DNA of 64,000 nt, taken from positions 3,077 through 67,076 of the forward strand of contig CAYWLQ010000009.1 of NCBI GenBank assembly GCA_964458775.1, read 5' to 3'. Each line of letters starts with the position of its first letter. Within the stretch, counting starts at the first letter, position 1. The notes under the pieces were generated by a model. It did not search any database. It saw only the letters and a program-made list of their open reading frames with translations, and was not told where the DNA came from. Positions 29,352 to 45,703 of this stretch are shown in pieces. Made by a program: the position numbers and the translations under genes. This stretch comes from an uncultured Myxococcales bacterium. Its GTDB lineage: Bacteria; Myxococcota_A; Polyangia; JAAYKL01.

Positions 29352-31136
29352 GTGGATAGATGTCCTCATTGCAGTCAGAGTCATGCCGGCACTAATCATT
29401 TCTGTCCTGTGACGGGATTGCCTGTCGCACTAGGGCCGAGATTGTTGTCGGCGAAATTGCTGGATAAGTACACTGTTATCAACATTCTAGGAGAAGGCCC
29501 GATTGGCATCGTTCTTGAAGTTGAGGATATTGTTACTCGTATACGCTACGCAGCCAAGCTTATTCATCCTCGTTTTACCAAGGGTCCTAACATAGCCGAA
29601 AACCTTATTAAGGATATAAAACAAGTCCAGTCCGTTTCTTGTGACAATATTGCACAAATAGTCAAGGTGGGAAGGGATTCAGGCGCTGCCGTAGTGGTTA
29701 TTCGAGAACTTATGATAGGAGAGTGTCTTTCATCCAGAATAGAGAATATCGGTCAATTTGCAGTTAAGCCTGCAATCGAAATAACCCGTGAAATATTGAC
29801 AGCATTACATGCTATTCATCAAATAGGTGTATTGAACTTGGATCTTTCACCATCCGACGTCTTTTTAATATCGGGAGCAAAAGGTACTCAAGTCAAATTG
29901 GTGGATATTGGAGAGCGCCATGTTAAAGCTTCTCTTCCAAGCGATTTCTCCGAAGCGGTAGGCTACAAATATTTTGCACCTGAACAACTTGATAAAAGTC
30001 GTCAACCCAACTTCCGTTCGGATATTTACGCAGCGGGAATGATTCTCTATCAGATGCTGACAGGAACTGTACCTGTCGGTGACCCTATTCCGCCAAAAGA
30101 TTGTAGAAAAGATATCTCTGATGATCTTTCTCAAGCGGTACTCAAAGCGATATCTTCGGTTCCCGGTCAGAGACATCAGACCGCACAAGAATTTATACGC
30201 GATTTGGATGCTGTGCTTGTAGAAACTTCAAAAAGCGGAAATACAGGTTCTGTATCTAAGATACCTGCTGTTATAGTTCGAGACAATTCTTCTTTGAATG
30301 CAAAACCTGTTTCAGATGCTGTTGAAACTGAACCTGTTGCAAAAGCAACATCATCAGAAGAAGTCGTTGTTCCAAAACAAAAAAACCAATCAGAAACCGC
30401 TTCCGTAATTGTAGAGATGCCGGAGATAGAAATTCCTCGTTCTCCAACAAAAACAATAGCCGTAATTGCTTTGTTGTTACTCCTAGCGGGCGTTGCCGCT
30501 TGGTTTTTTGTAATAAAAGACTTTGACACATCAACATCTGAGCCATCGTTGCCTGAGGTTCAAATAACAATAGAGGTATCTCCTTCTGATGCTACGGTCT
30601 TTGCGGACGGAAAGAAAGTTTCCGGTTCTCCGGCGGTTTTGCGGCTTCCGGCAGATAACAGTCTTCATACAATAGCAGTTAAGGCAGATGGATATGAGTC
30701 TATTGAGCGCGATGTTCGCCTGGATCGATCAAAAACAGTGAAAATTGAACTTATGGAAATAATACAACCTGATGAACCTTCTGACTCCAATATTGCCGCT
30801 GCTCCTATTTTGACAGAGGCTCGAAACCTTGACGCAGAAAAGGGTACAATCGAATCTGATACAGCTGACATCAAGAATGTCAGCAAAGAGGAAAAAGCCG
30901 TCAAAGCCGAACTTTCAAACAAAAGTTCGGTTGGAACGAGATCTGCCTCAACAGGAAAAAAAGCGGACACAAAGAAAACAACAGTTTCAACCAAACCTGC
31001 TGTTGACTCAGTCGTAAAATCAAAAAAGACATCAGTAGAAAAACCGAGTAATCCTGTTGCTAAAGTACCTAATGATGAGGAACCGCCCAAAACAAAGAAT
31101 TTGGAGGGTTTTCGAACAGTCAATCCGTTTGAGTAA
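29352..31136 (+). CDS. zinc-ribbon, degenerate Hanks-kinase (probable pseudokinase), TM and PEGA-domain protein with a Lys-rich tail
   Basis: N-terminal 'CPHC...FCPVTG' zinc ribbon. The kinase-like domain has 'GEGPIGIV' and 'AAK', but the catalytic loop reads 'NLDLSPSD' (not HRDLKPxN), DFG reads 'DIG', and APE reads 'APEQ'. TM 'IAVIALLLLLAGVAAWFFVI'. PEGA 'ITIEVSPSDATVFADGKKV...HTIAVKADGY'. Lys/Thr/Pro-rich C-terminal tail. Confidence 0.65.
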   Translation: MDRCPHCSQSHAGTNHFCPVTGLPVALGPRLLSAKLLDKYTVINILGEGPIGIVLEVEDIVTRIRYAAKLIHPRFTKGPNIAENLIKDIKQVQSVSCDNIAQIVKVGRDSGAAVVVIRELMIGECLSSRIENIGQFAVKPAIEITREILTALHAIHQIGVLNLDLSPSDVFLISGAKGTQVKLVDIGERHVKASLPSDFSEAVGYKYFAPEQLDKSRQPNFRSDIYAAGMILYQMLTGTVPVGDPIPPKDCRKDISDDLSQAVLKAISSVPGQRHQTAQEFIRDLDAVLVETSKSGNTGSVSKIPAVIVRDNSSLNAKPVSDAVETEPVAKATSSEEVVVPKQKNQSETASVIVEMPEIEIPRSPTKTIAVIALLLLLAGVAAWFFVIKDFDTSTSEPSLPEVQITIEVSPSDATVFADGKKVSGSPAVLRLPADNSLHTIAVKADGYESIERDVRLDRSKTVKIELMEIIQPDEPSDSNIAAAPILTEARNLDAEKGTIESDTADIKNVSKEEKAVKAELSNKSSVGTRSASTGKKADTKKTTVSTKPAVDSVVKSKKTSVEKPSNPVAKVPNDEEPPKTKNLEGFRTVNPFE

Positions 31137-31186: not shown

Positions 31187-32305
31187 ATGAAGCGTATCGT
31201 TCCTATTATCATCCTGTGTATCGGTGTCGTCGCTGCTTCTCCGGCACTTTGTCAGAAAAAAAAAGCTAAGGTACTGTTTGACGCCGGAGTAACTGCTCTT
31301 GAACAGAAAGACTATTCCAAAGCATTGCAATCATTTCAGGATGCATATTCACTAAGTCCTCATTGGGCTGTTTTAGCTCATATCGGCACATGTTATGCCA
31401 GATTGGATCAACCGGAAAAAGCAATACAAAGTTTTCAAACCTATCTGGAAGAAGGAGGCAAACAAATTCCCCCTGATGAAAGAAAAACAGCCGAGGAAAT
31501 GATAGTACAACAAAAGCGTAAACTCGGTACTTTAGTTTTGTCTGTGGGGAAAGACGGTGTTGAAGCACTTATAGATGGGGAATCTATCGGTAAATCACCA
31601 TTCAATGATATTGTTCTGTCTCCCGGCTTGCATGAGATTGCTGTAATCTTTGGACCGAGTGATATTGTAAAGCGTAAAATTGACTTGCTTTCGGGACAGG
31701 AGTTTATTCTTCGCATTGAGCAAGAAAAGCATGTTTCCACAGCACCCGAGACGACTTTGGTACAAGAATCAGAATCGAAACCCAAAAAATCCGAAACAAA
31801 AACATCTCAAATGGAAGAGACAAATCCGGTTTTTAGTGCTCCGCCTTCTTCTTCTGAAAAGGTAAAAGGAAGTGCTGTTCCATTCGGATTATCTCTGGGG
31901 CTGACAATAGCCGACCTTATAGCAACGGGTGTAAGTTGGGGACTATTTTCTTATTATAACTCTTCCGCAAAGAACTATAAAAACGATTTGGATTTGCAGG
32001 TTGAAATTTACGGTTGGGATTTTACTTGGGAAGAAACCTGTTCGCAGATTAAGGTTTCGACAAAATCAGAAGAGTATTACTGTAATACAGAACTGAATCG
32101 AAGAGATTTTGTAAAGAAAGCAGATACCTGGAAAATTGTAGGCATTGCCACCTCAGCAGCGTTGGGTGTAACCCTTACAACTACTCTAATATTCGGTCTC
32201 AATCGTCATTGGTTCGGCGGAAGCAAAAACAATGAAGCTGCACTTTCTTTTATTCCCTTTGTAAGCCCTAAAGAAAACGGTTTTGTTTTGAGTTTATCAT
32301 TCTAA
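31187..32305 (+). CDS. TPR-repeat, PEGA-domain, C-terminal membrane-anchored protein
   Basis: Signal peptide. TPR-like 'DYSKALQSFQDAYSLSP...AHIGTCYARLDQPEKAIQSFQTYL'. PEGA 'LVLSVGKDGVEALIDGESIGKSPF...HEIAVIFG'. Two C-terminal TM helices. Confidence 0.55.
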   Translation: MKRIVPIIILCIGVVAASPALCQKKKAKVLFDAGVTALEQKDYSKALQSFQDAYSLSPHWAVLAHIGTCYARLDQPEKAIQSFQTYLEEGGKQIPPDERKTAEEMIVQQKRKLGTLVLSVGKDGVEALIDGESIGKSPFNDIVLSPGLHEIAVIFGPSDIVKRKIDLLSGQEFILRIEQEKHVSTAPETTLVQESESKPKKSETKTSQMEETNPVFSAPPSSSEKVKGSAVPFGLSLGLTIADLIATGVSWGLFSYYNSSAKNYKNDLDLQVEIYGWDFTWEETCSQIKVSTKSEEYYCNTELNRRDFVKKADTWKIVGIATSAALGVTLTTTLIFGLNRHWFGGSKNNEAALSFIPFVSPKENGFVLSLSF

Positions 32306-36166: not shown

Positions 36167-37297
36167 TTATAGTTTTGCCCTTAACGCATACCATCCTATG
36201 TTTATAGAGAACTCACATGGGTCGCAGCTTTCGCTTGCGTTAAGGCATGGTTCGCAGGTTTTATTAATCGATAGAACTGCACCTTCGGCGTCTGTTACAT
36301 TTTCTCGCCAGATGTCGGTAAACTGATTGGTTGAGTCGTAGTTAGCGGAATAGAGTTCAACATAAAAATTTATTGAATCTGTGGCTTCGTCATACATTGG
36401 ATAGTCACCGATACCTTGATTGTAGAGTGCCTCCGGAATGTAAATTCCAAGCACCCAAGCTTTATTCGGTCCGGCATTTCCTTGCGCCCAAAGATCTAAT
36501 TCCTTTTCTCCATTGTATTCGTACCAATTGGCATAAAACACATCTAGCAAAACATCTTTGCCGTCGTGCATTGCGATATAGTCAATATTGTTACCGTCAA
36601 GTAAGACTGCCGCCTCATCGTCAATTCCTACAGGTATTGAGAAGTTATCTAATGCAAATCCTCCTACTCCTAAACATAAGGGCAATCCCCAGAGATCTAC
36701 ACAAACATCTCCACATTTGCATGGATCATCTTCTGCAGATTCATCACACATCGGATAACAATAGTTTTCAGAGTATCTGGTCGACGGAAAAACCCAGCTT
36801 CCGCATTCAGAATTTTCACAGCATTCTTCTAAATCGCTACAGATGCTTCCCTCACAATCGTTGTATACACAGTCGCTGTCAGCATCGGTGTCAGCATCTG
36901 CATCTGCATCCGAATCTGTATCGGCATCAGCATCGGTATCGGCATCGATATCGGCATCAGTATCAGCATCGGCATCAGCATCTGAATTGCCGGTACATCC
37001 TTCGCATATTCCCCATTTTTGTCCGCTGCTTTCACATTCTTGAACTCCGGTTCCTCCTTCTGCACATGGACAGACTTTTAGATCACCGGGAACACACGTT
37101 TCTGAACCCAAACAACCTTTACACGGTCCCCAAGAGTTACCGTCTTCACTACAGACCTGAACCCCTGACGTATTTGTTCCGGGACACGGGCAATCTTCTT
37201 GTAAACCGGGAGGACATCCTAGAATTTCACTTGTACAGCCGAACAGTCCATTAAGATATGTCAATGCAATCAATAACGTTGCTATCGTGCGAATCAT
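36167..37297 (-). CDS. cysteine-rich-repeat lipoprotein with internal (Asp-Ala/Asp-Thr)n low-complexity tract
   Basis: Lipobox 'LFGC'. Three tandem Cys-rich repeats of the form C.C.G..G.Q.C...G..WG.C.GC (similar to the cysteine-rich repeats seen in myxobacterial secreted proteins). A 38-aa [37 protein letters not shown] tract, then a Cys-containing C-terminal domain. Confidence 0.5.
   Translation of the reverse strand: MIRTIATLLIALTYLNGLFGCTSEILGCPPGLQEDCPCPGTNTSGVQVCSEDGNSWGPCKGCLGSETCVPGDLKVCPCAEGGTGVQECESSGQKWGICEGCTGNSDADADADTDADIDADTDADADTDSDADADADTDADSDCVYNDCEGSICSDLEECCENSECGSWVFPSTRYSENYCYPMCDESAEDDPCKCGDVCVDLWGLPLCLGVGGFALDNFSIPVGIDDEAAVLLDGNNIDYIAMHDGKDVLLDVFYANWYEYNGEKELDLWAQGNAGPNKAWVLGIYIPEALYNQGIGDYPMYDEATDSINFYVELYSANYDSTNQFTDIWRENVTDAEGAVLSINKTCEPCLNASESCDPCEFSINIGWYALRAKL
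36875..36988 (-). repeat. tandem hexanucleotide (GCATCR)n repeat encoding (Asp-Ala)n
   Basis: Plus-strand DNA reads ...gcatcggtgtcagcatctgcatctgcatccgaatctgtatcggcatcagcatcggtatcggcatcgatatcggcatcagtatcagcatcggcatcagcatct... Confidence 0.8.
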
Positions 37298-37356: not shown

Positions 37357-38868
37357 CTATTTAAAAACGAAGGTGATATCCAGCTCTAGACTAATAAAAC
37401 GAGGTAAATTGTTTTTATCTGAAAGTAATGTGCGTGTTTTTTCATCCATGGTTTTTGCGGCAGAAGATGCGTCGGCGTTTTCGTCAGCAGCCGGCAGAGC
37501 ATTAATTTGACCCAATTCGCTGCATACCTTGGAAGTGCTTTTTAAACTCTGCCTAATTGGATCGTATACTCTTGAGCAAGCATATTTCCAGAAAGGCAAA
37601 AGCCACTGTACGTGAACACCGAAGGCTACTGACGGAGCGGCAAAAAAATTAACCCCGATTTCAGGTGTTACGGTAAAACCCTTAAGAGATACGATCTCTC
37701 GTCTTTTGGAAAGCGTACTTATTGTTTCTTGGTACTCTTCCGGAATATCAAACATCGATCCGTCTAATCCCTCAGTGTTTTGTGCAAACAAAAGCCAGGA
37801 ATGGCCGAAATCTATTCCTATATACGGATCCACGGGAAATCTTCTAACCGGATGAATTCGCAAACCGCCGAAAACTCCTGCATATACAAAAGCCTTGTCA
37901 GCATTTAGAAATACTTCTACGTCGGTAGAAATCGGCATTTGGTGATCAAAGGCAACAGCGGTAAACGATAGAGAGACATAAGAAGCTATACGAACTCCCA
38001 ATCTGATACGACCTCCGTAACCCTTTTTTGCCGATTCGCATATTCCTTCACGCATGCACCATGAAAACATAAATCCCAACTCACCGAACATTCCGGAGTG
38101 ATCCCATTTCTTCCAATCTTTTTTCTTTTTGGGAGCATCATCTAAATCTGAAACTGTAAACTCATCCTCAATTTCAATTTCTTCAGGCTCTTCATGAACC
38201 TCAGGTAATTTTTGAATCACAGGTAAAGGTTCAAAAGCCTCCGACTTTATGAGACGTTCCGGATTTGCCATATAAATTTCGGGAAAAGGTGCGTGCATAG
38301 GATCAGGGCTTTTTCCCAGTAGGTTTGCAACCACGACTGCCGTTGCAGGAATGAACGCTTCTGAGCGATACGGGATTTCCCCTCTAAAAGGAAGTTTAAC
38401 AGTTAATAATCTTATCGATCCTGTTTTAACGTTCATAGCAGCCATATCCAAGAAGTGCTCTTTGGAAACTGTTTCATGGATGTTTGAAATAATAATCAAG
38501 TCAGCGCCGATAGAAACACCTGCTTCTTTTAGTTGAAACCGTGTAGGTTTTCCTTCGACCCCTTTTTTATTTAGTGCTTTATCAACCTCTTGTTCTTTTT
38601 TTACATCATATCCTTGAAGCTTTAGTTGCTCTTTTATTTCCTCAAAACACAACTTTAGTTCCGACAAAGTTAGAGTTCCGAAGGTTGAAGCCGCCCCTGC
38701 TATCGGCAACTGAACGGTGTCTTGCTGTAATCCCGCTTCTGCAGATTCAGAATCGTTAGGCAAAGTTGACTGTTCATCAGCAAAAACACTTTTTGGAAAG
38801 AACCAAATTGTACAAACAGAAAAAATTATAATTATTAATTGTAACAAGCTTTTAAAAAATCTTTCCAA
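37357..38868 (-). CDS. secreted hypothetical protein (signal peptide, beta-rich C-terminal half)
   Basis: N-terminal signal peptide 'IIIIFSVCTIWFFPKSVFA'. No enzymatic motif found. Confidence 0.3.
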   Translation of the reverse strand: MERFFKSLLQLIIIIFSVCTIWFFPKSVFADEQSTLPNDSESAEAGLQQDTVQLPIAGAASTFGTLTLSELKLCFEEIKEQLKLQGYDVKKEQEVDKALNKKGVEGKPTRFQLKEAGVSIGADLIIISNIHETVSKEHFLDMAAMNVKTGSIRLLTVKLPFRGEIPYRSEAFIPATAVVVANLLGKSPDPMHAPFPEIYMANPERLIKSEAFEPLPVIQKLPEVHEEPEEIEIEDEFTVSDLDDAPKKKKDWKKWDHSGMFGELGFMFSWCMREGICESAKKGYGGRIRLGVRIASYVSLSFTAVAFDHQMPISTDVEVFLNADKAFVYAGVFGGLRIHPVRRFPVDPYIGIDFGHSWLLFAQNTEGLDGSMFDIPEEYQETISTLSKRREIVSLKGFTVTPEIGVNFFAAPSVAFGVHVQWLLPFWKYACSRVYDPIRQSLKSTSKVCSELGQINALPAADENADASSAAKTMDEKTRTLLSDKNNLPRFISLELDITFVFK

Positions 38869-39009
38869 TATGATCTATCCGCATGAAATTGTCATTTCAT
38901 GGCAAAAAAACCCGCAAATATAAATAACGATACATTGCAAAAAAAATTAAGCTTGCCTTGACTGTCAGTTTTCTGTTGAGAATGGACTTCTTGTGGTAGA
39001 AGTATCACA

Positions 39010-40560
39010 ATGTTACGCTTCTATTGCGGAGGTGCCAAGTTGGGGATGACATTTATTGAAGCAGCCCAAGAAATACTAGAGAGAACCGGCATTCCTATGC
39101 ACGCAAAGGATATCGCAGAAAAAGCTATTGCTTCCGGTATATTATCACATGTGGGGAAAACACCTGTTCAAACCATGTCCGCACAATTATCAGCTACTGT
39201 GCTAAAAGGAGGAGATACCTTCACAAAAATTCGTCCGGGAGTGTTTGCTCTTACCAAGTGGAAAGATACAAGCACCAAAACAAATAAAAATCAGAGTCTC
39301 AAGACAGACTCGGTATCTTCGTCGACAATGAAATCATTGAATGAATCCATACCCATTGTGCCTCGTGAATTGGAGAGTGCTGTTTTTGAAAAAGAGTCTG
39401 AGGAAAAAGTACAGACATCTTTCGTAGATGGAATTTCAACGAACAGTGTATTGCAGAAAAAACGAAAACGCAGGAGGAAGAAAGCATCTAAAGCATCCTC
39501 TTCCTCTATTCCGGCAAATGAAATGGGAGGTATTGTAACAGTGTCTGACTGTCTTACAGACAAAAAAATCGAGATTTCTTCCGACGCTGTCTTGGAAAAG
39601 GAGGAGAGGGGGAAGTTTGAAAAGGCTGATTTAAGCATTTCTTCCGACATCCTCTTGGAAAAAGGGAATAGGAGGGATTTTGAAACTTCTCGTAAAACAC
39701 TTAATAAAACTGAAGTTGTTGAAGACAGAGAAAAAACGAGTGTAAAACTTACAAAAAAAAATGTTGCTGTATCAAAGCAACAGAACACTGCTTCTCCTTT
39801 GGATTTCAACCGTGATGAAATAGTTGATTATATAGAAAAGATCTTGCGAAAATCTTCTCGTCCCATACCTGCAGAAAAGATTGTTGAAGAGCTGGAGATT
39901 TCTTTCAAAGACGGAATCACCCTTATAGAAGCACTTATAATGTCCGATTCTTTTGAAAGGGAGCGTTCCGGTCGAATGCCTCGTTTTGTTAGACATAGGG
40001 GCGGATATGCTTTGCTTGAACGAGAAGTTAACAGCGAAATTGTAACACTTGAAAATCAAATCACAGAGATCAGAAGCAGGTTGTCTTATCTAGCTGAGCG
40101 TCAAATACTAAAAAAACTACGCAGTATGTCAGCTAATACATTCGTTCAAGTTATGATTATATTTTTGGAAAGACTTGGATTCGGCTCAGTCAAACCGATT
40201 TCTGTTAAAGATGATAACGGATTCTATCTGTCAGTTAAGGATAAATCGCGTAGCGGATCTTTTAGAACCGCAATTGTACTGAGACGAGATCCTGCCGAAT
40301 TCATTTTAACTGAACATGAAGTAATGGAGTTGAGAGGAACAATTCATCATTTTAACGCTATGGGAGGAATGATATTTACCACCGGACGAGCAAATGAGAA
40401 GGCTTGTGAAGAGGGACAAATTGCCAATTTACCTCCGGTTGCAGTGATTGACGGTGAGACACTAGCAAGAGAGCTCGTAAGATTGGGAGTAGGCGTCAAA
40501 GATCGTATTGTACGTCTTGCGATTTATGATGATGTTTTCTTTAATAAGATAGAATCCTAA
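39010..40560 (+). CDS. HARE-HTH (winged-helix) N-terminal domain fused to an Mrr-like restriction-endonuclease-fold C-terminal domain with degenerate catalytic residues
   Basis: N-terminal 'MTFIEAAQEILERTGIPMHAKDIAEKAI..GKTPVQTMSAQLSATVLKGGDTFTKIRPGVFALTKW' is HARE-HTH-like. C-terminal 'FVQVMIIFLERLGFGSV...DDNGFYLSV...AIVLRR...GGMIFTTGRANEKACEEGQ...VAVIDGETLARELVRLGVGV' follows the Mrr_cat pattern, but the GiD and QxK positions are replaced. An internal 2x repeat '(I)SSDAVLEKEERGKFEKADLS / ISSDILLEKGNRRDFETS' lies in the middle. Confidence 0.55.
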   Translation: MLRFYCGGAKLGMTFIEAAQEILERTGIPMHAKDIAEKAIASGILSHVGKTPVQTMSAQLSATVLKGGDTFTKIRPGVFALTKWKDTSTKTNKNQSLKTDSVSSSTMKSLNESIPIVPRELESAVFEKESEEKVQTSFVDGISTNSVLQKKRKRRRKKASKASSSSIPANEMGGIVTVSDCLTDKKIEISSDAVLEKEERGKFEKADLSISSDILLEKGNRRDFETSRKTLNKTEVVEDREKTSVKLTKKNVAVSKQQNTASPLDFNRDEIVDYIEKILRKSSRPIPAEKIVEELEISFKDGITLIEALIMSDSFERERSGRMPRFVRHRGGYALLEREVNSEIVTLENQITEIRSRLSYLAERQILKKLRSMSANTFVQVMIIFLERLGFGSVKPISVKDDNGFYLSVKDKSRSGSFRTAIVLRRDPAEFILTEHEVMELRGTIHHFNAMGGMIFTTGRANEKACEEGQIANLPPVAVIDGETLARELVRLGVGVKDRIVRLAIYDDVFFNKIES

Positions 40561-40579
40561 ACGGAACAAATAGATCCAA

Positions 40580-43144
40580 ATGGCAGAAAAAAACAACAAC
40601 ATGTCTTTTTCTTTTTCTGATGCTGAAATGCCTGTTCGTTTTGGACGATATATGCTGCTTCGCAGAAAAAGTTTGGAATCAATAGGTGAACACTTTTTGG
40701 CATTGTGGGGTGTTGATGAAGGAATAGATCAACTGCGTATGGTTCGTGCTATCTATCGATCAGTTGCAGAAGACGAAGACTTTGTGGCTATGTTTACAGA
40801 AGAAGCTCGTTCCTTATCACAACTATCAAGCTCCAATGTTGTACGAATTGTTGAGGTCGGAAGCGAAAGCGGAATTCCGTTTGTTGCTCAAGAGCATGTA
40901 GAAGGTATTACGCTTGAACGCCTGCTTCAGATTTCGGAAGAGCGCGGGATACGATGCCATTGGGAACTTGCTGCACACGTAGCTGCTGAAATGCTTCGCG
41001 GGCTTGATCATGTTCATCGTCGTGAAGATGTTAGAGGTATTCCGTTGGCAATGCGTCACGGAGATATAAGACCTCCAAATGTGCTGATTTCCTTTAATGG
41101 TGAGGTTAAACTTACCAATTTCAGCTCTTCTTTGTATTATATGGTTCATAAAGGCACAAACACTCGATTCGAAACCGAACGCGGAATGTATGCATCGCCG
41201 GAAGGACGTCGTTCGGCCTCAAAAGGGGCAACCGCAGCCGGTGATTTATGGGGAGTATCTGTTTCTCTTCTCGTTATGCTTGAAGGATTGTCGGCACTAA
41301 AACAAATCAACTCATTTGTTGCAGACGGCGAGTCTTTAACCTCTGTAGCATACAGGATAAGAGAAATACCCAAACGTCTCAATCTTCTCTTGGCTAGAGC
41401 CCTTCATATAGATCCGCGCCATCGATTTGATACTGCATCTGCAATGAGAGATGCTTTGTTAGAAATTCTTAAAGAAAACGGTGTCGGTCATCCTCCTGAT
41501 GATCTATCTGCCTTTGTTAAGGATCTGGGTTCTCAAGAAAGAGAAGAAGAAGAAAAAATAGTTAGAACCATGTTAGGAAGGGAAGCGAGTATGTCTCTTG
41601 ATGAATTGTCTGATTCATCAAAAATTGCGCCCGGAACTGTATTAGACGGCAAATATCATTTGTTAAGACTCATAGGCGAAGGTGGTATGGGGCAAGTCTT
41701 TGAAGCGGAGCATTTGGGTATAGAAAAGCGTCTGGCAGTTAAAGTTCTTCACGAACGTGTACTTCACGATCAAGTCGCGGTGGAGCGTTTTCGCCGAGAA
41801 GCTAGAATTCTAGGCGGACTTGGTCATCCCAATATTGTCAGCGTTACTGACTACGGAGTTACTGTTGAAGGAAACTACTACTTGGCAATGGAGCTTCTTG
41901 ACGGAAAGAGCCTTGGTTCAAAATTAGAAAAAAACGAGGCAATATCTCCTGTAGAAATTATGGATATAATGATTGCGGTTTGTAACGGTCTTACTGCTGC
42001 TCATGCAGCCGGAGTAGTGCATCGTGACCTTAAGCCGGACAACATATTTCTAACAAGAACAGGTCCTCGAATTGTCGATTTTGGCATAGCCAAACGGACA
42101 GATTTCGATGATGAAGAGCGCTCGCTAACGAAAACCGGCAATATCTGCGGCACAGTGGAATATATCTCACCTGAACACATCGGAGGTCAAAATACAGATC
42201 ATAGGGTAGATATATACACAGCAGGGCTAATTATCTACGAAGTGCTTACAGGTACTACTCCTTTTAAGGGGCGCAATATTGCTGAGACGATGAACCGAAT
42301 TATGACAGACAAGATTACCGCTCCAAGAAAACGCACAGGCAACAAACTAATTCCTAAACCGTTGGAGGATATTTGTCTTAAAGCAATGTCTCGCGATCCG
42401 GCAAAGCGTTATCAGTCTGCTGAAGAAATGCGATTGGCATTAGAAGCTGTTAGAGCTGAAGTATTTCAGATGACAATGATTGAGTCTTTGGGAAATTCAA
42501 AAAAAACCAAAACTCTCCATACTGTTGCATTATTAGGATTGTCAGGTGCTATGTTGTTGTCTGCAATACTGATATATTTTTTTAAACTTAACTCGGTCAA
42601 TGAAAACAAGGTATCAGTTACTCTACCATTGTCTTCGGAAATAAAAAAAGCCGAACCCTTACCCTCAATTCATGACAATGATGATAGTCATGTTGAAGAA
42701 AAACTGACAAAATCTGAGAATAATATCGCCGAAAACACAACAGAAGACACAGCTTCATTTTTCAATTCTGTCAATGAAGGAGAAATAACCTTAGAAGAGC
42801 TCTTAAGCCAAGGAGAAGCAGCCTTGAAGAGACTTGATCTGGCCGGTGCTGCTTATCACTTTAAGATGGCGTCAGAGAGAGATCCTCGAAATCCACGAGG
42901 TTGGTACGGACAAGGAAGAGTTTGGTTTGAACGGAACGACCCTCAAAGAGCCGTCATAATGATTCAGAAAGCACTAAAATTGGATCCAGGTAGATATAAA
43001 TGGCGTGTTTTTTTAGGAAAAATCTACATGTCAATTGGAGACAGAGAGCGAGCAGTTCGAGAATGGAAAAGAGTTCTGCTGACACGCCCCAACCATTCAG
43101 AAACTTTACAATTGCTTTCAGCTTCAGGTGCACCGTCTGACTAG
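40580..43144 (+). CDS. tandem pseudokinase plus active Hanks Ser/Thr kinase, with TM and C-terminal TPR repeats
   Basis: Domain 1 is degenerate ('MRHGDIRPPNVLI', 'KLTNFSSS', no Gly loop). Domain 2 is canonical ('GEGGMGQVFEA', 'AVK', 'HRDLKPDNIFL', 'DFGIAK', 'SPEH'). TM 'LLGLSGAMLLSAILIYFF'. C-terminal TPR ('AAYHFKMASERDPRNPRGWYGQGRVWFERNDPQRAV...'). Confidence 0.85.
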   Translation: MAEKNNNMSFSFSDAEMPVRFGRYMLLRRKSLESIGEHFLALWGVDEGIDQLRMVRAIYRSVAEDEDFVAMFTEEARSLSQLSSSNVVRIVEVGSESGIPFVAQEHVEGITLERLLQISEERGIRCHWELAAHVAAEMLRGLDHVHRREDVRGIPLAMRHGDIRPPNVLISFNGEVKLTNFSSSLYYMVHKGTNTRFETERGMYASPEGRRSASKGATAAGDLWGVSVSLLVMLEGLSALKQINSFVADGESLTSVAYRIREIPKRLNLLLARALHIDPRHRFDTASAMRDALLEILKENGVGHPPDDLSAFVKDLGSQEREEEEKIVRTMLGREASMSLDELSDSSKIAPGTVLDGKYHLLRLIGEGGMGQVFEAEHLGIEKRLAVKVLHERVLHDQVAVERFRREARILGGLGHPNIVSVTDYGVTVEGNYYLAMELLDGKSLGSKLEKNEAISPVEIMDIMIAVCNGLTAAHAAGVVHRDLKPDNIFLTRTGPRIVDFGIAKRTDFDDEERSLTKTGNICGTVEYISPEHIGGQNTDHRVDIYTAGLIIYEVLTGTTPFKGRNIAETMNRIMTDKITAPRKRTGNKLIPKPLEDICLKAMSRDPAKRYQSAEEMRLALEAVRAEVFQMTMIESLGNSKKTKTLHTVALLGLSGAMLLSAILIYFFKLNSVNENKVSVTLPLSSEIKKAEPLPSIHDNDDSHVEEKLTKSENNIAENTTEDTASFFNSVNEGEITLEELLSQGEAALKRLDLAGAAYHFKMASERDPRNPRGWYGQGRVWFERNDPQRAVIMIQKALKLDPGRYKWRVFLGKIYMSIGDRERAVREWKRVLLTRPNHSETLQLLSASGAPSD

Positions 43145-43153
43145 CAATAAATA

Positions 43154-43190
43154 GGCGCTCCTTCGTTTTTTATAACAAAAGAGCGCCCAT
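43154..43190. terminator. candidate bidirectional intrinsic terminator between convergent genes
   Basis: ggcgctc...(long loop)...gagcgcc inverted repeat followed by cattttaat. It lies between the stop at 43144 (+) and the stop at 43221 (-). Confidence 0.3.
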
Positions 43191-43220: not shown

Positions 43221-44537
43221 CTAACTGCCTGCTGTCATAGTAAAAGGAAGAAATTTTGCGCGATTCGGATGCCTCAACTTGTTCATTGCCTTCATCTCTA
43301 TTTGGCGAATTCGTTCTCTTGTGACTTTAAACCTCAAACCTACGTCATCAAGTGTGTGTTCGTTCATTGACTCAATTCCATAACGCATTCTAAGGACAAG
43401 CTCTTCTCTAGGTTCCAAGGTGGATAAAGCTTTTCTGGTCTTTTCTGATGTGTCTTTACTTAGGGCAATTTCTTGTGGTGAAGCGTTTCGATCATCTTCC
43501 AGTAGATCACAGAGAACTGCATCATTATCATCCCCGCCGATGGGCATGTCTATGCTTACTGTTTCCTTGGTAATATGAAGCAGCATTTCTACCTTAAAAA
43601 CATCCATTTCCATTTGTGCGGCAAGTTCTTCTAAAGACGGTTCTCTCTGAAGCTCTTTTGACAGTTTTTCTCTAAGATGTCCGAGTTTACGTTTGTAATC
43701 AGAAATGTGAACCGGAATACGTATAATTCTCGAATGATCATCAAGAGCTCTTGATACAGCTTGTCTTATCCACCAGGTTGCGTATGTGCTGAAGCGGAAT
43801 CCCAATCTATGGTCATATTTTTCTGCTGCGCGCATCAGGCCGATATTTCCTTCTTGTATTAGGTCAAAAAGCGGCATTCCCCTGTTTTTGTATCTTTTAG
43901 CAATTGAAACCACCAAACGCAGGTTAGATTCGACAATGCGCATTCGCATTCGTCTTATGCTTTCCTCATGTATGAAGAGCTTGTCACACAATATTTGAAG
44001 GTTTTTCTCTGATATTCCTAACTTATTTTCAACTTCAAGTATTTGGTTTTCCGCTTGTTTTGCTGCGGTATCCATATCGCGCAAAGTATGTAAATTCAGA
44101 CGGCTGGGCCATGAGCACATAGCCTGCTTCTGAAATGCAGCATCAGCCTTGCGAAGTAGTTTTCGGATTTCAAACATCTTCATGCCGGCAATCTTTTCGC
44201 AACGCTTAATGGTTTGGGCGGCCTGTTTTTGGATCTCGTTACATTGATGTAACTGTTCAATAGTTTGATAAAGAAGTTTTCGCTCAGAGGCATCTTCTGT
44301 TTCTGTTTCTTTGTCAAAATCATATTCAGCTTGCTCAACAAACTGCACAGGAATAGAAATTCCGAATTTTTCTATTAGAGCAGATACCTTTGCTTCTTCT
44401 TCAACAATTTTCTCACCGATTGCTGTTTCATCTTCTCTAGTAAGCAGTTTAAAACGAGCTATTCTCTTTAAATAGTCACCGATTGCTTCAATTACCCATT
44501 GTTCATTGTTTTTGTTTCGGACACTATTCATGAGCAA
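43221..44537 (-). CDS. RNA polymerase sigma-70 family sigma factor (RpoD-type, group 1/2-like)
   Basis: Region 2 '[61 protein letters not shown]', region 3 'IRIPVH', and region 4 '[29 protein letters not shown]'. At 438 aa it is shorter than a typical RpoD. Confidence 0.85.
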
Positions 44538-44872: not shown

Positions 44873-45703
44873 ATGCGTAAGACAGACTGGCGACAATTGT
44901 CATTTTCATTTAAACAGGATTCTTCACAAGATGTGATTTCTAATAATTTTGAAGATTTACAAAATGAAGGAGCGGTTTTGTCACGAGCCGTTGACTCCGG
45001 AGCAGAGGCTGAGTTGGATGCACACAGGATGAGAATTCAAGGATATCTCACTGTATACATGCCGGAACCGGTAAAGTTGGTTTTTACTAAAAACCATAGT
45101 ACCATGATTTCATTTAGAAGAAGAGAAGGTTGCATCTATCTTAGACTTCATAAAATGTTCAGACATGCTGACGAAAACATGCTCAATCATCTTCTTGATT
45201 TCTTAAAAACAAAAAAAAACCGCGATTCTTCTGCCATAAATAAATTTATTGCTGACCACTCCCAAGAAATAGATAGTAACAAAAGTGTACGGAGAAGTAT
45301 GTTGGAAGTCCAAGGACGCTATTTCAATTTGGAAGAGGTATTGGCGCGAACAGCTGAACGTTATTTTGGGGGACAAGTAGATGTTAGTATCGGATGGGGG
45401 CGAGCTCCTAATGTAAGAAAGCGTAAAGGTCGATTCAAAACTATAAGTCGAGCACTTGCAACCTATAGTTACAATGAACGAATAATTAGAGTAAGTCCGA
45501 TTCTTGATGCTCCTGATATTCCCTCATACGTTATAGACTGGATTGTATATCATGAAATACTTCATCATGTTATTCCGGTAAAGAAGAGCGGTTCCAAACA
45601 TATTTATCATTCAGCACAGTTTCGTTCTTTAGAACGAGGGTTTGAACATTTTGAAAAAGCAAAAAAATGGGAAACAGAAAATATTGAAAGAATACTTCGA
45701 TAA
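44873..45703 (+). CDS. YgjP/DUF45-like (WLM/SprT-like) zinc metallohydrolase
   Basis: C-terminal 'VIDWIVYHEILHHVIPVKKSGSKHIYHSAQFRSLERGF' gives HExxH plus a downstream His/'HSxxF'. Upstream 'GWGRAPNVRKRKGRFKTISRALATYS...IIRVSPIL' matches the DUF45 core. Confidence 0.6.
   Translation: MRKTDWRQLSFSFKQDSSQDVISNNFEDLQNEGAVLSRAVDSGAEAELDAHRMRIQGYLTVYMPEPVKLVFTKNHSTMISFRRREGCIYLRLHKMFRHADENMLNHLLDFLKTKKNRDSSAINKFIADHSQEIDSNKSVRRSMLEVQGRYFNLEEVLARTAERYFGGQVDVSIGWGRAPNVRKRKGRFKTISRALATYSYNERIIRVSPILDAPDIPSYVIDWIVYHEILHHVIPVKKSGSKHIYHSAQFRSLERGFEHFEKAKKWETENIERILR

Follow-up and report, generated by a model that had tools for sequence, protein, structure and literature searches.

Bacterial Hanks-type Ser/Thr kinases are often encoded beside the regulators that are their substrates, as in the pknH-embR pair of Mycobacterium tuberculosis, and they also phosphorylate nucleoid proteins, as PknB does with Lsr2; proteins in which a pseudokinase and a kinase stand in tandem are known from JAK (JH2-JH1) and from the plant tandem kinase proteins. 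The HARE-HTH proteins described by Aravind and Iyer in 2012 reportedly include the delta subunit of RNA polymerase, ASXL/HB1 and restriction-enzyme fusions, and the reading of modified DNA is a published prediction for HARE-HTH domains. These are among the closest known counterparts of a gene pair of an uncultured Myxococcales bacterium, located at positions 39010-43144 of a 64,000-nucleotide stretch of genomic DNA (the window; assembly GCA_964458775.1, contig CAYWLQ010000009.1, positions 3,077 to 67,076 of the forward strand). The first gene, open reading frame 1 (ORF1), encodes a protein with an N-terminal HARE-HTH domain and a C-terminal Mrr-type nuclease fold devoid of the canonical catalytic residues; the second, ORF2, encodes a predicted pseudokinase and an active-type Hanks kinase in tandem, followed by one predicted transmembrane helix and tetratricopeptide repeats (TPR). 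The reading favored here, tentatively and with a probability of about 45%, is that the pair constitutes a chromosomal signaling operon of one Myxococcota lineage, in which a receptor kinase controls a non-cutting DNA-binding protein, probably by phosphorylation. The parts themselves (HARE-HTH, Mrr fold, Hanks kinase, pseudokinase, TPR and the HARE-HTH-nuclease fusion) are known; what is new is a Myxococcota-type family in which the canonical catalytic residues have been lost throughout and the clade-specific coupling of this family to a tandem pseudokinase-kinase receptor. In line with the original prediction for this DNA, which had called the module undescribed, literature searches found no paper describing the pair or linking HARE-HTH proteins with Myxococcota biology, and no experimental work on the ORF1 subfamily. 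The features of the locus, in window coordinates, are as follows.

39040 to 40560, plus strand: ORF1, HARE-HTH and degenerate Mrr-fold protein, 506 amino acids (aa) from TTG 39040 (Pfam, homologue starts).
39040 to 39273, plus strand: N-terminal HARE-HTH winged-helix domain (Pfam PF05066, E 9e-17; predicted local distance difference test score, pLDDT, above 90).
39274 to 39804, plus strand: predicted disordered linker, 23% Ser+Thr (pLDDT below 50 over aa 81-250; composition).
39805 to 40125, plus strand: second winged-helix-like domain (three helices and a beta-hairpin, aa 258-325), then a long helix (aa 332-362; AlphaFold, pLDDT above 90).
40126 to 40557, plus strand: Mrr_cat-type PD-(D/E)xK fold without canonical catalytic residues (Pfam, hhalign, Foldseek).
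40561 to 40579, plus strand: intergenic spacer of 19 nucleotides (nt), with no hairpin and no obvious Shine-Dalgarno sequence.
40580 to 43144, plus strand: ORF2, tandem pseudokinase, Hanks kinase, transmembrane and TPR protein, 854 aa.
40622 to 41479, plus strand: kinase-fold domain 1, predicted pseudokinase (Pkinase match, degenerate motifs kept in orthologues).
41654 to 42421, plus strand: domain 2, canonical Hanks Ser/Thr kinase domain (Pkinase over aa 359-614, E 2e-71 for the whole protein).
42512 to 42583, plus strand: single predicted transmembrane helix, TLHTVALLGLSGAMLLSAILIYFF (aa 645-668, hydrophobicity read from the sequence).
42803 to 43120, plus strand: C-terminal TPR repeats (TPR_2, TPR_16 and TPR_19 over aa 742-847; conserved in orthologues).
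43154 to 43187, both strands: GC-rich hairpin, candidate bidirectional terminator (RNA folding), between the convergent ORF2 and sigma-70 gene.

The arrangement resembles pknH-embR and PknB-Lsr2 in that the gene of a membrane receptor-type Ser/Thr kinase lies next to that of a DNA-binding protein (predicted here), with phosphorylation proposed to tune DNA binding. However, ORF1 lacks an FHA domain and is not related to either EmbR or Lsr2, and ORF2 differs from PknH and PknB by its N-terminal pseudokinase and by a TPR sensor that is not of the PASTA or NHL type; the NCBIfam model PknB_PASTA (NF033483) scores 389 on ORF2 against a cut-off of 450, the presumed extracellular part being TPR and not PASTA. 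With JAK JH2-JH1 and the plant tandem kinases, ORF2 shares a degenerate kinase fold placed directly N-terminal to an active domain within one polypeptide, and both of its kinase-fold domains are under strong constraint; in contrast to those proteins, it is bacterial and Hanks-type, it has a transmembrane and TPR context, and there is no evidence of shared ancestry. On the ORF1 side, the C-terminal half is homologous to residues 144-304 of Escherichia coli Mrr, its structural model resembles MspJI and AspBHI in their nuclease domains, and as in Mrr a winged-helix-type module precedes the nuclease fold; unlike these enzymes, ORF1 carries an additional HARE-HTH domain and a disordered linker of about 170 aa. 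Fusions of HARE-HTH to a nuclease fold of the PD-(D/E)xK type are already known from computational work (PMC12839542, PMC11037411). The family of ORF1 differs from those fusions in that the nuclease partner lacks the canonical catalytic residues, in that it forms a conserved family of Myxococcota, and in that one of its clades is coupled to a receptor kinase.

The favored reading draws on the conservation of the pair, surveyed by searching the proteins of the window with tblastn against 165 fetched loci. The original prediction had called the two genes a unit, to be abandoned if they were never adjacent in relatives; a tandem kinase gene in fact follows the ORF1 homologue on the same strand at a distance of 9-181 nt in every locus of the clade but one (L001-L009, L019, L084/L085, L086-L091 and the divergent L096), and in L017, which has an incomplete HARE gene, it is likewise located downstream. 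Where the contig allows, domain 1 is followed by domain 2 and then by TPR in these loci. The sole close relative without the pair is L010 (= L082/L083), which has an unrelated 313-aa gene in its place, and of 102 further loci whose downstream sequence reaches at least 2 kb, L096 alone showed the pair. In a neighbor-joining tree of ORF1 homologues, the pair is confined to one clade, with 16 of 17 leaves inside and 0 of 82 outside, which indicates a single origin followed by retention. This clade spans GC contents from 41% (the window) to 72%, and the pair is kept down to about 29-37% identity in the C-terminal region of ORF1. The flanks vary meanwhile: L084 has an APH-family gene and mlaC, L001 and L003-L005 have ddl, and the window has a sigma-70 gene. 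The only flanking genes in common are ddl and one for a Cys-rich lipoprotein, both upstream of the pair in a single sub-group, and none of the window's neighbors recurs.

Several observations concern the genes around the pair in these related loci. In L001 and L003-L005, and probably in L006 and L090 as well, the pair is directly preceded by a divergent D-Ala-D-Ala ligase (ddl) gene; the conserved small ORFs seen upstream of ORF1 in related loci were discarded as antisense artefacts of this divergent ddl. A protein of about 307 aa without Pfam match is encoded on the same strand after the tandem kinase in L001 (6116-7039), L008 (7040-7966), L009 (12141-13082) and L019 (12108-13052). The window lacks this protein, which may be a third component restricted to a lineage. 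The genes of about 305-313 aa that follow ORF1 homologues in L081 and L010/L082 were considered as diverged pseudokinases and rejected: they show no similarity to domain 1 or to each other and have no Pfam hits.

The architecture of ORF2 claimed by the original prediction, namely a dead kinase domain with HGDIRPPN, with NFS for DFG and with no Gly loop, followed by a canonical Hanks domain, a transmembrane helix and TPR, was borne out by Pfam matches and motifs. When domain 1 (the first 347 aa) is scanned alone, it matches Pkinase at E 1.3e-18 over profile positions 37-260 only; as the match starts at position 37, the Gly-loop region is absent from the domain. GxGxxG is missing, the beta3 Lys is replaced by Arg (LRMVRAIY; K in some orthologues), HRD by HGD in HGDIRPPN (aa 160-167, 41057-41080) and DFG by NFS in LTNFSSS (aa 178-184, 41111-41131); the alphaC Glu and the SPE motif are retained. 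Complete orthologues keep HGD[IVL]R, and in the position of DFG they typically have NFG, with NFSS in the window and L085, GFG in L088 and HFG in L096; the Asp is found in none. Since the degenerate motifs are conserved among orthologues, they are not a sequencing artefact. Two motifs private to domain 1, MPVRFGRY and GHPPDDL (the latter after the domain, at 41486-41518), are also conserved in the orthologue alignment, and identity among orthologues is 44-75% for domain 1, versus 55-66% for the active domain in the GTDB loci. The conservation of degenerate and private motifs together points to a dead domain under selection, i.e., a constrained functional module. Domain 1 thus combines kinase-fold homology with the loss of catalytic motifs, a loss that orthologues share, and is predicted to be a pseudokinase; the closest relatives found for it are single-domain myxobacterial kinases with HRDxSPxN and an intact DFG. 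A search started from domain 1, in which ordinary kinases flooded the word pre-filter, gave 12 hits and no informative orthologue among them.

Domain 2, in comparison, has every motif of an active kinase (GEGGMGQV, LAVKVL, ERFRRE, HRDLKPDN, VDFG and ISPE); its Pkinase match spans positions 1-255 of the 263 of the profile, and its activation loop contains Thr residues (LTKTG). A hydrophobic stretch is present at the alignment position of the transmembrane helix in complete ORF2 orthologues. As the kinase is cytoplasmic and is separated from the TPR repeats by one transmembrane helix, we infer that the latter are periplasmic.

The AlphaFold model of ORF1, built on 111 homologues, lays out the protein as HARE-HTH (aa 1-78), linker (aa 81-250), winged-helix-like domain (aa 258-325), helix (aa 332-362) and alpha/beta domain (aa 365-505), with pLDDT above 90 for the folded domains. 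The HARE-HTH domain is clear: PF05066 matches aa 13-84 over the full length of the profile (positions 1-71) with 61.6 bits against a cut-off of 25.9, and the family signature LSHVGKTPVQTMSAQLSA lies at 39142-39195. Two residues in a helix of this domain, S47 and S51, are Ser in 97-100% of the kinase-linked clade versus 16-25% elsewhere. The linker contains a basic patch, KKRKRRRKKASK, at 39457-39492 (run KKRKRRRKK); its R/K run is kept across the family, with R144 invariant. The second winged-helix-like domain has no Pfam family and no significant sequence similarity to the first, so that it could not be upheld as a duplicate of HARE-HTH. A sequence search of solved structures with ORF1 returned only matches to the low-complexity linker.

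That ORF1 has a nuclease fold, another claim of the original prediction, was confirmed, but the canonical catalytic residues are missing. The Pfam profile Mrr_cat covers aa 370-487 with 40.3 bits (cut-off 21; E 4e-10), hhalign aligns the ORF1 family to the Mrr residues given above with a probability of 97.4%, and in Foldseek the model fits best to the nuclease domains of MspJI (E 1e-4), FokI and AspBHI, with the nuclease-like N-terminal domain of RPB5 also among the matches. The motif residues of Mrr are E172 (motif I), D199/D203 (motif II) and Q219/K221 (motif III, Q-x-K) (PMC2790908). In the alignment of Mrr with ORF1, E172 falls on V369, D199 on D392, D203 on Y396 (H in relatives), Q219 on V413 and K221 on R415. 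These replacements are family-wide: in the columns of 111 members, the D203 position is H in 105, the K221 position R in 105 and the Q219 position V or I in 107, so that the catalytic D and K of Mrr are absent in about 95% of the members. The motif I Glu is also lost in the kinase-linked clade, and ORF1 of the window further lacks the family's near-invariant E394 and H396. The protein thus has the Mrr_cat fold without the canonical Mrr catalytic motifs and, given the loss of these residues, its C-terminal domain is predicted to be a nuclease fold that no longer cuts; a binding role appears more likely than a cutting one.

ORF1 as read (39010-40560, 516 aa from ATG 39010) and ORF2 (40580-43144) are both on the plus strand. 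As nearly all homologues begin with MTF, the true start of ORF1 is probably ATG 39046, or TTG 39040 as in NCBI protein P0001 (for which an exact look-up gave no record), and ATG 39010 probably makes the protein 12 codons too long; a GGAGG lies upstream of the start at 39029-39033. The original prediction argued for an operon from a 20-nt gap and a terminator-like hairpin after ORF2: the gap is short (19 nt instead of 20), and the hairpin is real. It folds with -20.9 kcal/mol (z -4.4) on the plus strand and -30.4 kcal/mol (z -6.0) on the minus strand, and as it is followed by only four U on the plus strand and stands between convergent genes, it is best called a bidirectional terminator candidate. 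It is missing from the list of a consensus terminator scan, probably because its long interrupted stem falls outside the criteria of the scan (stem, loop of 3-8). Promoter-like sites are not enriched over shuffles (12 vs 9.2 +/- 3.1). The common strand, the short gap, the lack of an internal terminator and the adjacency kept in relatives are the marks of an operon, and suggest that ORF1 and ORF2 are co-transcribed.

Beyond the pair, the ORF1 family is large. A pattern scan over one genome per GTDB species found at least 578 species genomes with a stretch encoding an ORF1 relative, and the 80 best of the 578 stretches all come from different Myxococcota/Polyangia-type metagenome-assembled genomes (MAGs). 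An exhaustive profile search of 1.84 billion cluster representatives gave 617 at E<=1e-30; a profile search with the 111 family members returned essentially the same proteins, with one new match and no named cultured species. A tblastn search of 72,556 plasmids and 50,697 phage records gave no ORF1 match at E<=1e-5. In Polyangiaceae-type genomes, the homologue belongs to a conserved block of housekeeping genes: it follows alaS, murB and a macro-domain gene and precedes a lipoprotein gene and, at a greater distance, dprA and topA. The pattern looks like that of a vertically inherited chromosomal gene and not of a patchy mobile defense gene. The lipoprotein, of about 309 aa, abuts or nearly abuts the stop codon of the ORF1 homologue in 38 of 55 Polyangiaceae-type loci (including L081, 1-17671); that of L081 looks like LolB by eye and has no Pfam hit. 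With a GC content of 40.7%, versus 51-72% in related pair-bearing loci and a median of 67% in other family loci, the organism of the window is a low-GC outlier among these Myxococcota.

In the signaling scheme proposed here, for which we infer DNA binding by ORF1, its phosphorylation, the topology of ORF2 and a regulatory output, the periplasmic TPR domain of ORF2 would receive a cue, and the pseudokinase domain would control or scaffold the active kinase domain, as a regulator or docking platform. The kinase would then phosphorylate ORF1 at linker sites close to the basic patch or at S47/S51 of HARE-HTH, and phosphorylation would alter the binding of ORF1 to DNA or to RNA polymerase, leading to changed gene expression or nucleoid state. 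Several points weigh against this scheme. ORF1 has neither an FHA domain nor another known phospho-dependent docking module, and the clade-specific Ser residues could be explained by lineage divergence alone. Most members of the ORF1 family lack this kinase and L010 (= L082/L083) has lost the adjacency, from which it follows that the core function of ORF1 does not need this kinase. All loci were moreover fetched through ORF1, so that the pairing was surveyed from the ORF1 side only, and the neighbor-joining tree is a simple one, with identity-type distances and no support values.

The absence of this kinase from all 82 loci outside the clade, with the lost adjacency in L010, is also what would be expected if the two genes were independent neighbors, perhaps co-transcribed, with ORF1 serving Myxococcota in a general way as a nucleoid or DNA-binding protein, and with other targets for the signals of the kinase. 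Myxococcota are rich in Hanks kinases (another is encoded 9 kb away in the window, and extra ones near several related loci), so that chance adjacency to some kinase would not be rare. However, the neighbor is always the same unusual orthologue, with pseudokinase, kinase, transmembrane helix and TPR, on the same strand and after a short gap, and the pair has been kept through the divergence of ORF1 and a large GC shift while the flanks turned over; independence is thus considered unlikely. The relation of the two proteins may also run the other way, ORF1 acting as a transcription factor or, akin to delta, as an RNA-polymerase-associated factor and controlling the operon, kinase included, without being phosphorylated. 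The N-terminal domain of the delta subunit of RNA polymerase has the HARE-HTH fold, an acidic stretch follows HARE-HTH in Polyangiaceae-type homologues as it does in delta, and the order of regulator then sensor is typical of autoregulated operons. The divergent promoter region that separates ORF1 from the gene at 37357-38868 (minus strand) contains a perfect 8-4-8 palindrome at 38882-38901 (CATGAAAT-TGTC-ATTTCATG) that could be an operator; yet nothing links it to the ORF1 protein, the window has a single copy, and a match also arose in 5 of 100 shuffles. A regulator of this kind would leave the conserved pseudokinase domain and the clade-specific Ser residues unexplained, and is judged improbable.

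The original prediction had likened the pair to kinase-containing defense modules. On that view the pair would serve against phages or in genetic conflict: ORF1 would read or cut modified foreign DNA in a type IV-like way, with the kinase switching on or regulating the response, in a manner similar to Stk2, PD-T4-6, PglW of BREX type 2 (with its NERD nuclease domain) and Mad6 of MADS, where a Ser/Thr kinase is associated with a PD-(D/E)xK-fold protein. HARE-HTH plus an Mrr-type fold is a classic restriction-associated architecture (PMC12839542, PMC11037411). The C-terminus of ORF1 matches the PADLOC candidate family PDC-S02 (E 8e-13) and, weakly, mREase_IV (E 7.8e-4), several of its homologues also match Pfam NA-iREase1, an inactive nuclease family of the sensor type found in conflict systems, and ORF2 matches the PADLOC models of PD-T4-6 (E 9e-114) and mad6. 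Two of these matches were set against controls: mREase_IV scores 3.5e-175 for E. coli Mrr itself, and the PD-T4-6 models, which have no curated cut-off here and match ORF2 in its catalytic domain only, are generic enough to give 1.5e-37 for the unrelated PEGA-domain kinase of the window and 4.8e-27 for the dead domain 1. NCBIfam MAD6 (NF047741) reaches 246 bits against a cut-off of 460, and NCBIfam PglW (NF033442) 99 bits against 990, with no BREX genes in the neighborhood. The best stretch of the MAD6 model covers ORF2 aa 160-463, across the kinase-domain boundary, at profile positions 322-596 of 612, and hints that Mad6 may itself have a second kinase-like region.

The residues and the setting of ORF1 argue in the same direction. 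The equivalents of D203, Q219 and K221 are H/Y, V and R; no other components, defense genes or mobile elements lie near the pair, whose neighbors in the window are housekeeping genes (bamA, hrcA, htrA for an HtrA-type protease, holA, rpsT, tRNA-Gly and the sigma-70 gene). Unlike type IV restriction endonucleases, the family is chromosomal and widespread in Myxococcota-type MAGs, partly in conserved housekeeping synteny, and was not matched in the plasmid and phage collections. The defense flavor of the original prediction is thereby not retained, a defense function being rated very improbable, and the locus serves as a caution: a HARE-HTH/Mrr architecture together with PADLOC kinase hits is not sufficient to call a defense system.

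Elsewhere in the window, a second Hanks-type kinase, with a PEGA domain, is encoded at 29352-31136 (plus strand) and is followed by a separate TPR protein at 31187-32305 (plus strand); the window therefore contains two kinase-plus-TPR arrangements, one split and one fused. The sigma-70 gene convergent to ORF2 (43221-44537, minus strand) is RpoD-like and short (438 aa), with 362 bits against an RpoD cut-off of 555; it also matches MzaA, the sigma model of the MZA anti-phage system, at 313 against 800, and does not recur near any fetched ORF1 homologue. Two predicted exported proteins without Pfam family are encoded at 36167-37297 and 37357-38868 (both minus strand), one of them a Cys-rich lipoprotein with a long (DA/DT)n repeat; this lipoprotein (36167-37297) was compared with those upstream of the pair in seven related loci and rejected as their homologue (hhalign probability 0.3%). 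A 276-aa protein at 44873-45703 (plus strand), which neither Pfam nor NCBIfam matched, contains the HExxH-like motif YHEILHH and may be a small metallopeptidase.

A bolder account goes beyond the signaling operon proposed here and is regarded as unlikely. An Mrr-type restriction enzyme would have been domesticated early in Myxococcota into a non-cutting HARE-HTH reader of chromosomal DNA or its modification, and later wired, in one lineage, to a receptor of the tandem pseudokinase-kinase type; an extracellular cue would then be converted through Ser/Thr phosphorylation into a nucleoid or 'chromatin' state, along a eukaryote-like axis from receptor kinase to chromatin reader. If the kinase does control ORF1, the latter would represent a new class of bacterial Hanks-kinase effector, in which an inactivated restriction-enzyme scaffold bearing a HARE-HTH domain has been exapted. 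ORF2 would in turn offer a constrained bacterial pseudokinase-kinase tandem in which to study how dead domains regulate live ones outside eukaryotes, and a function would be given to a large uncharacterized family, present in at least 578 GTDB species genomes and 617 cluster representatives.

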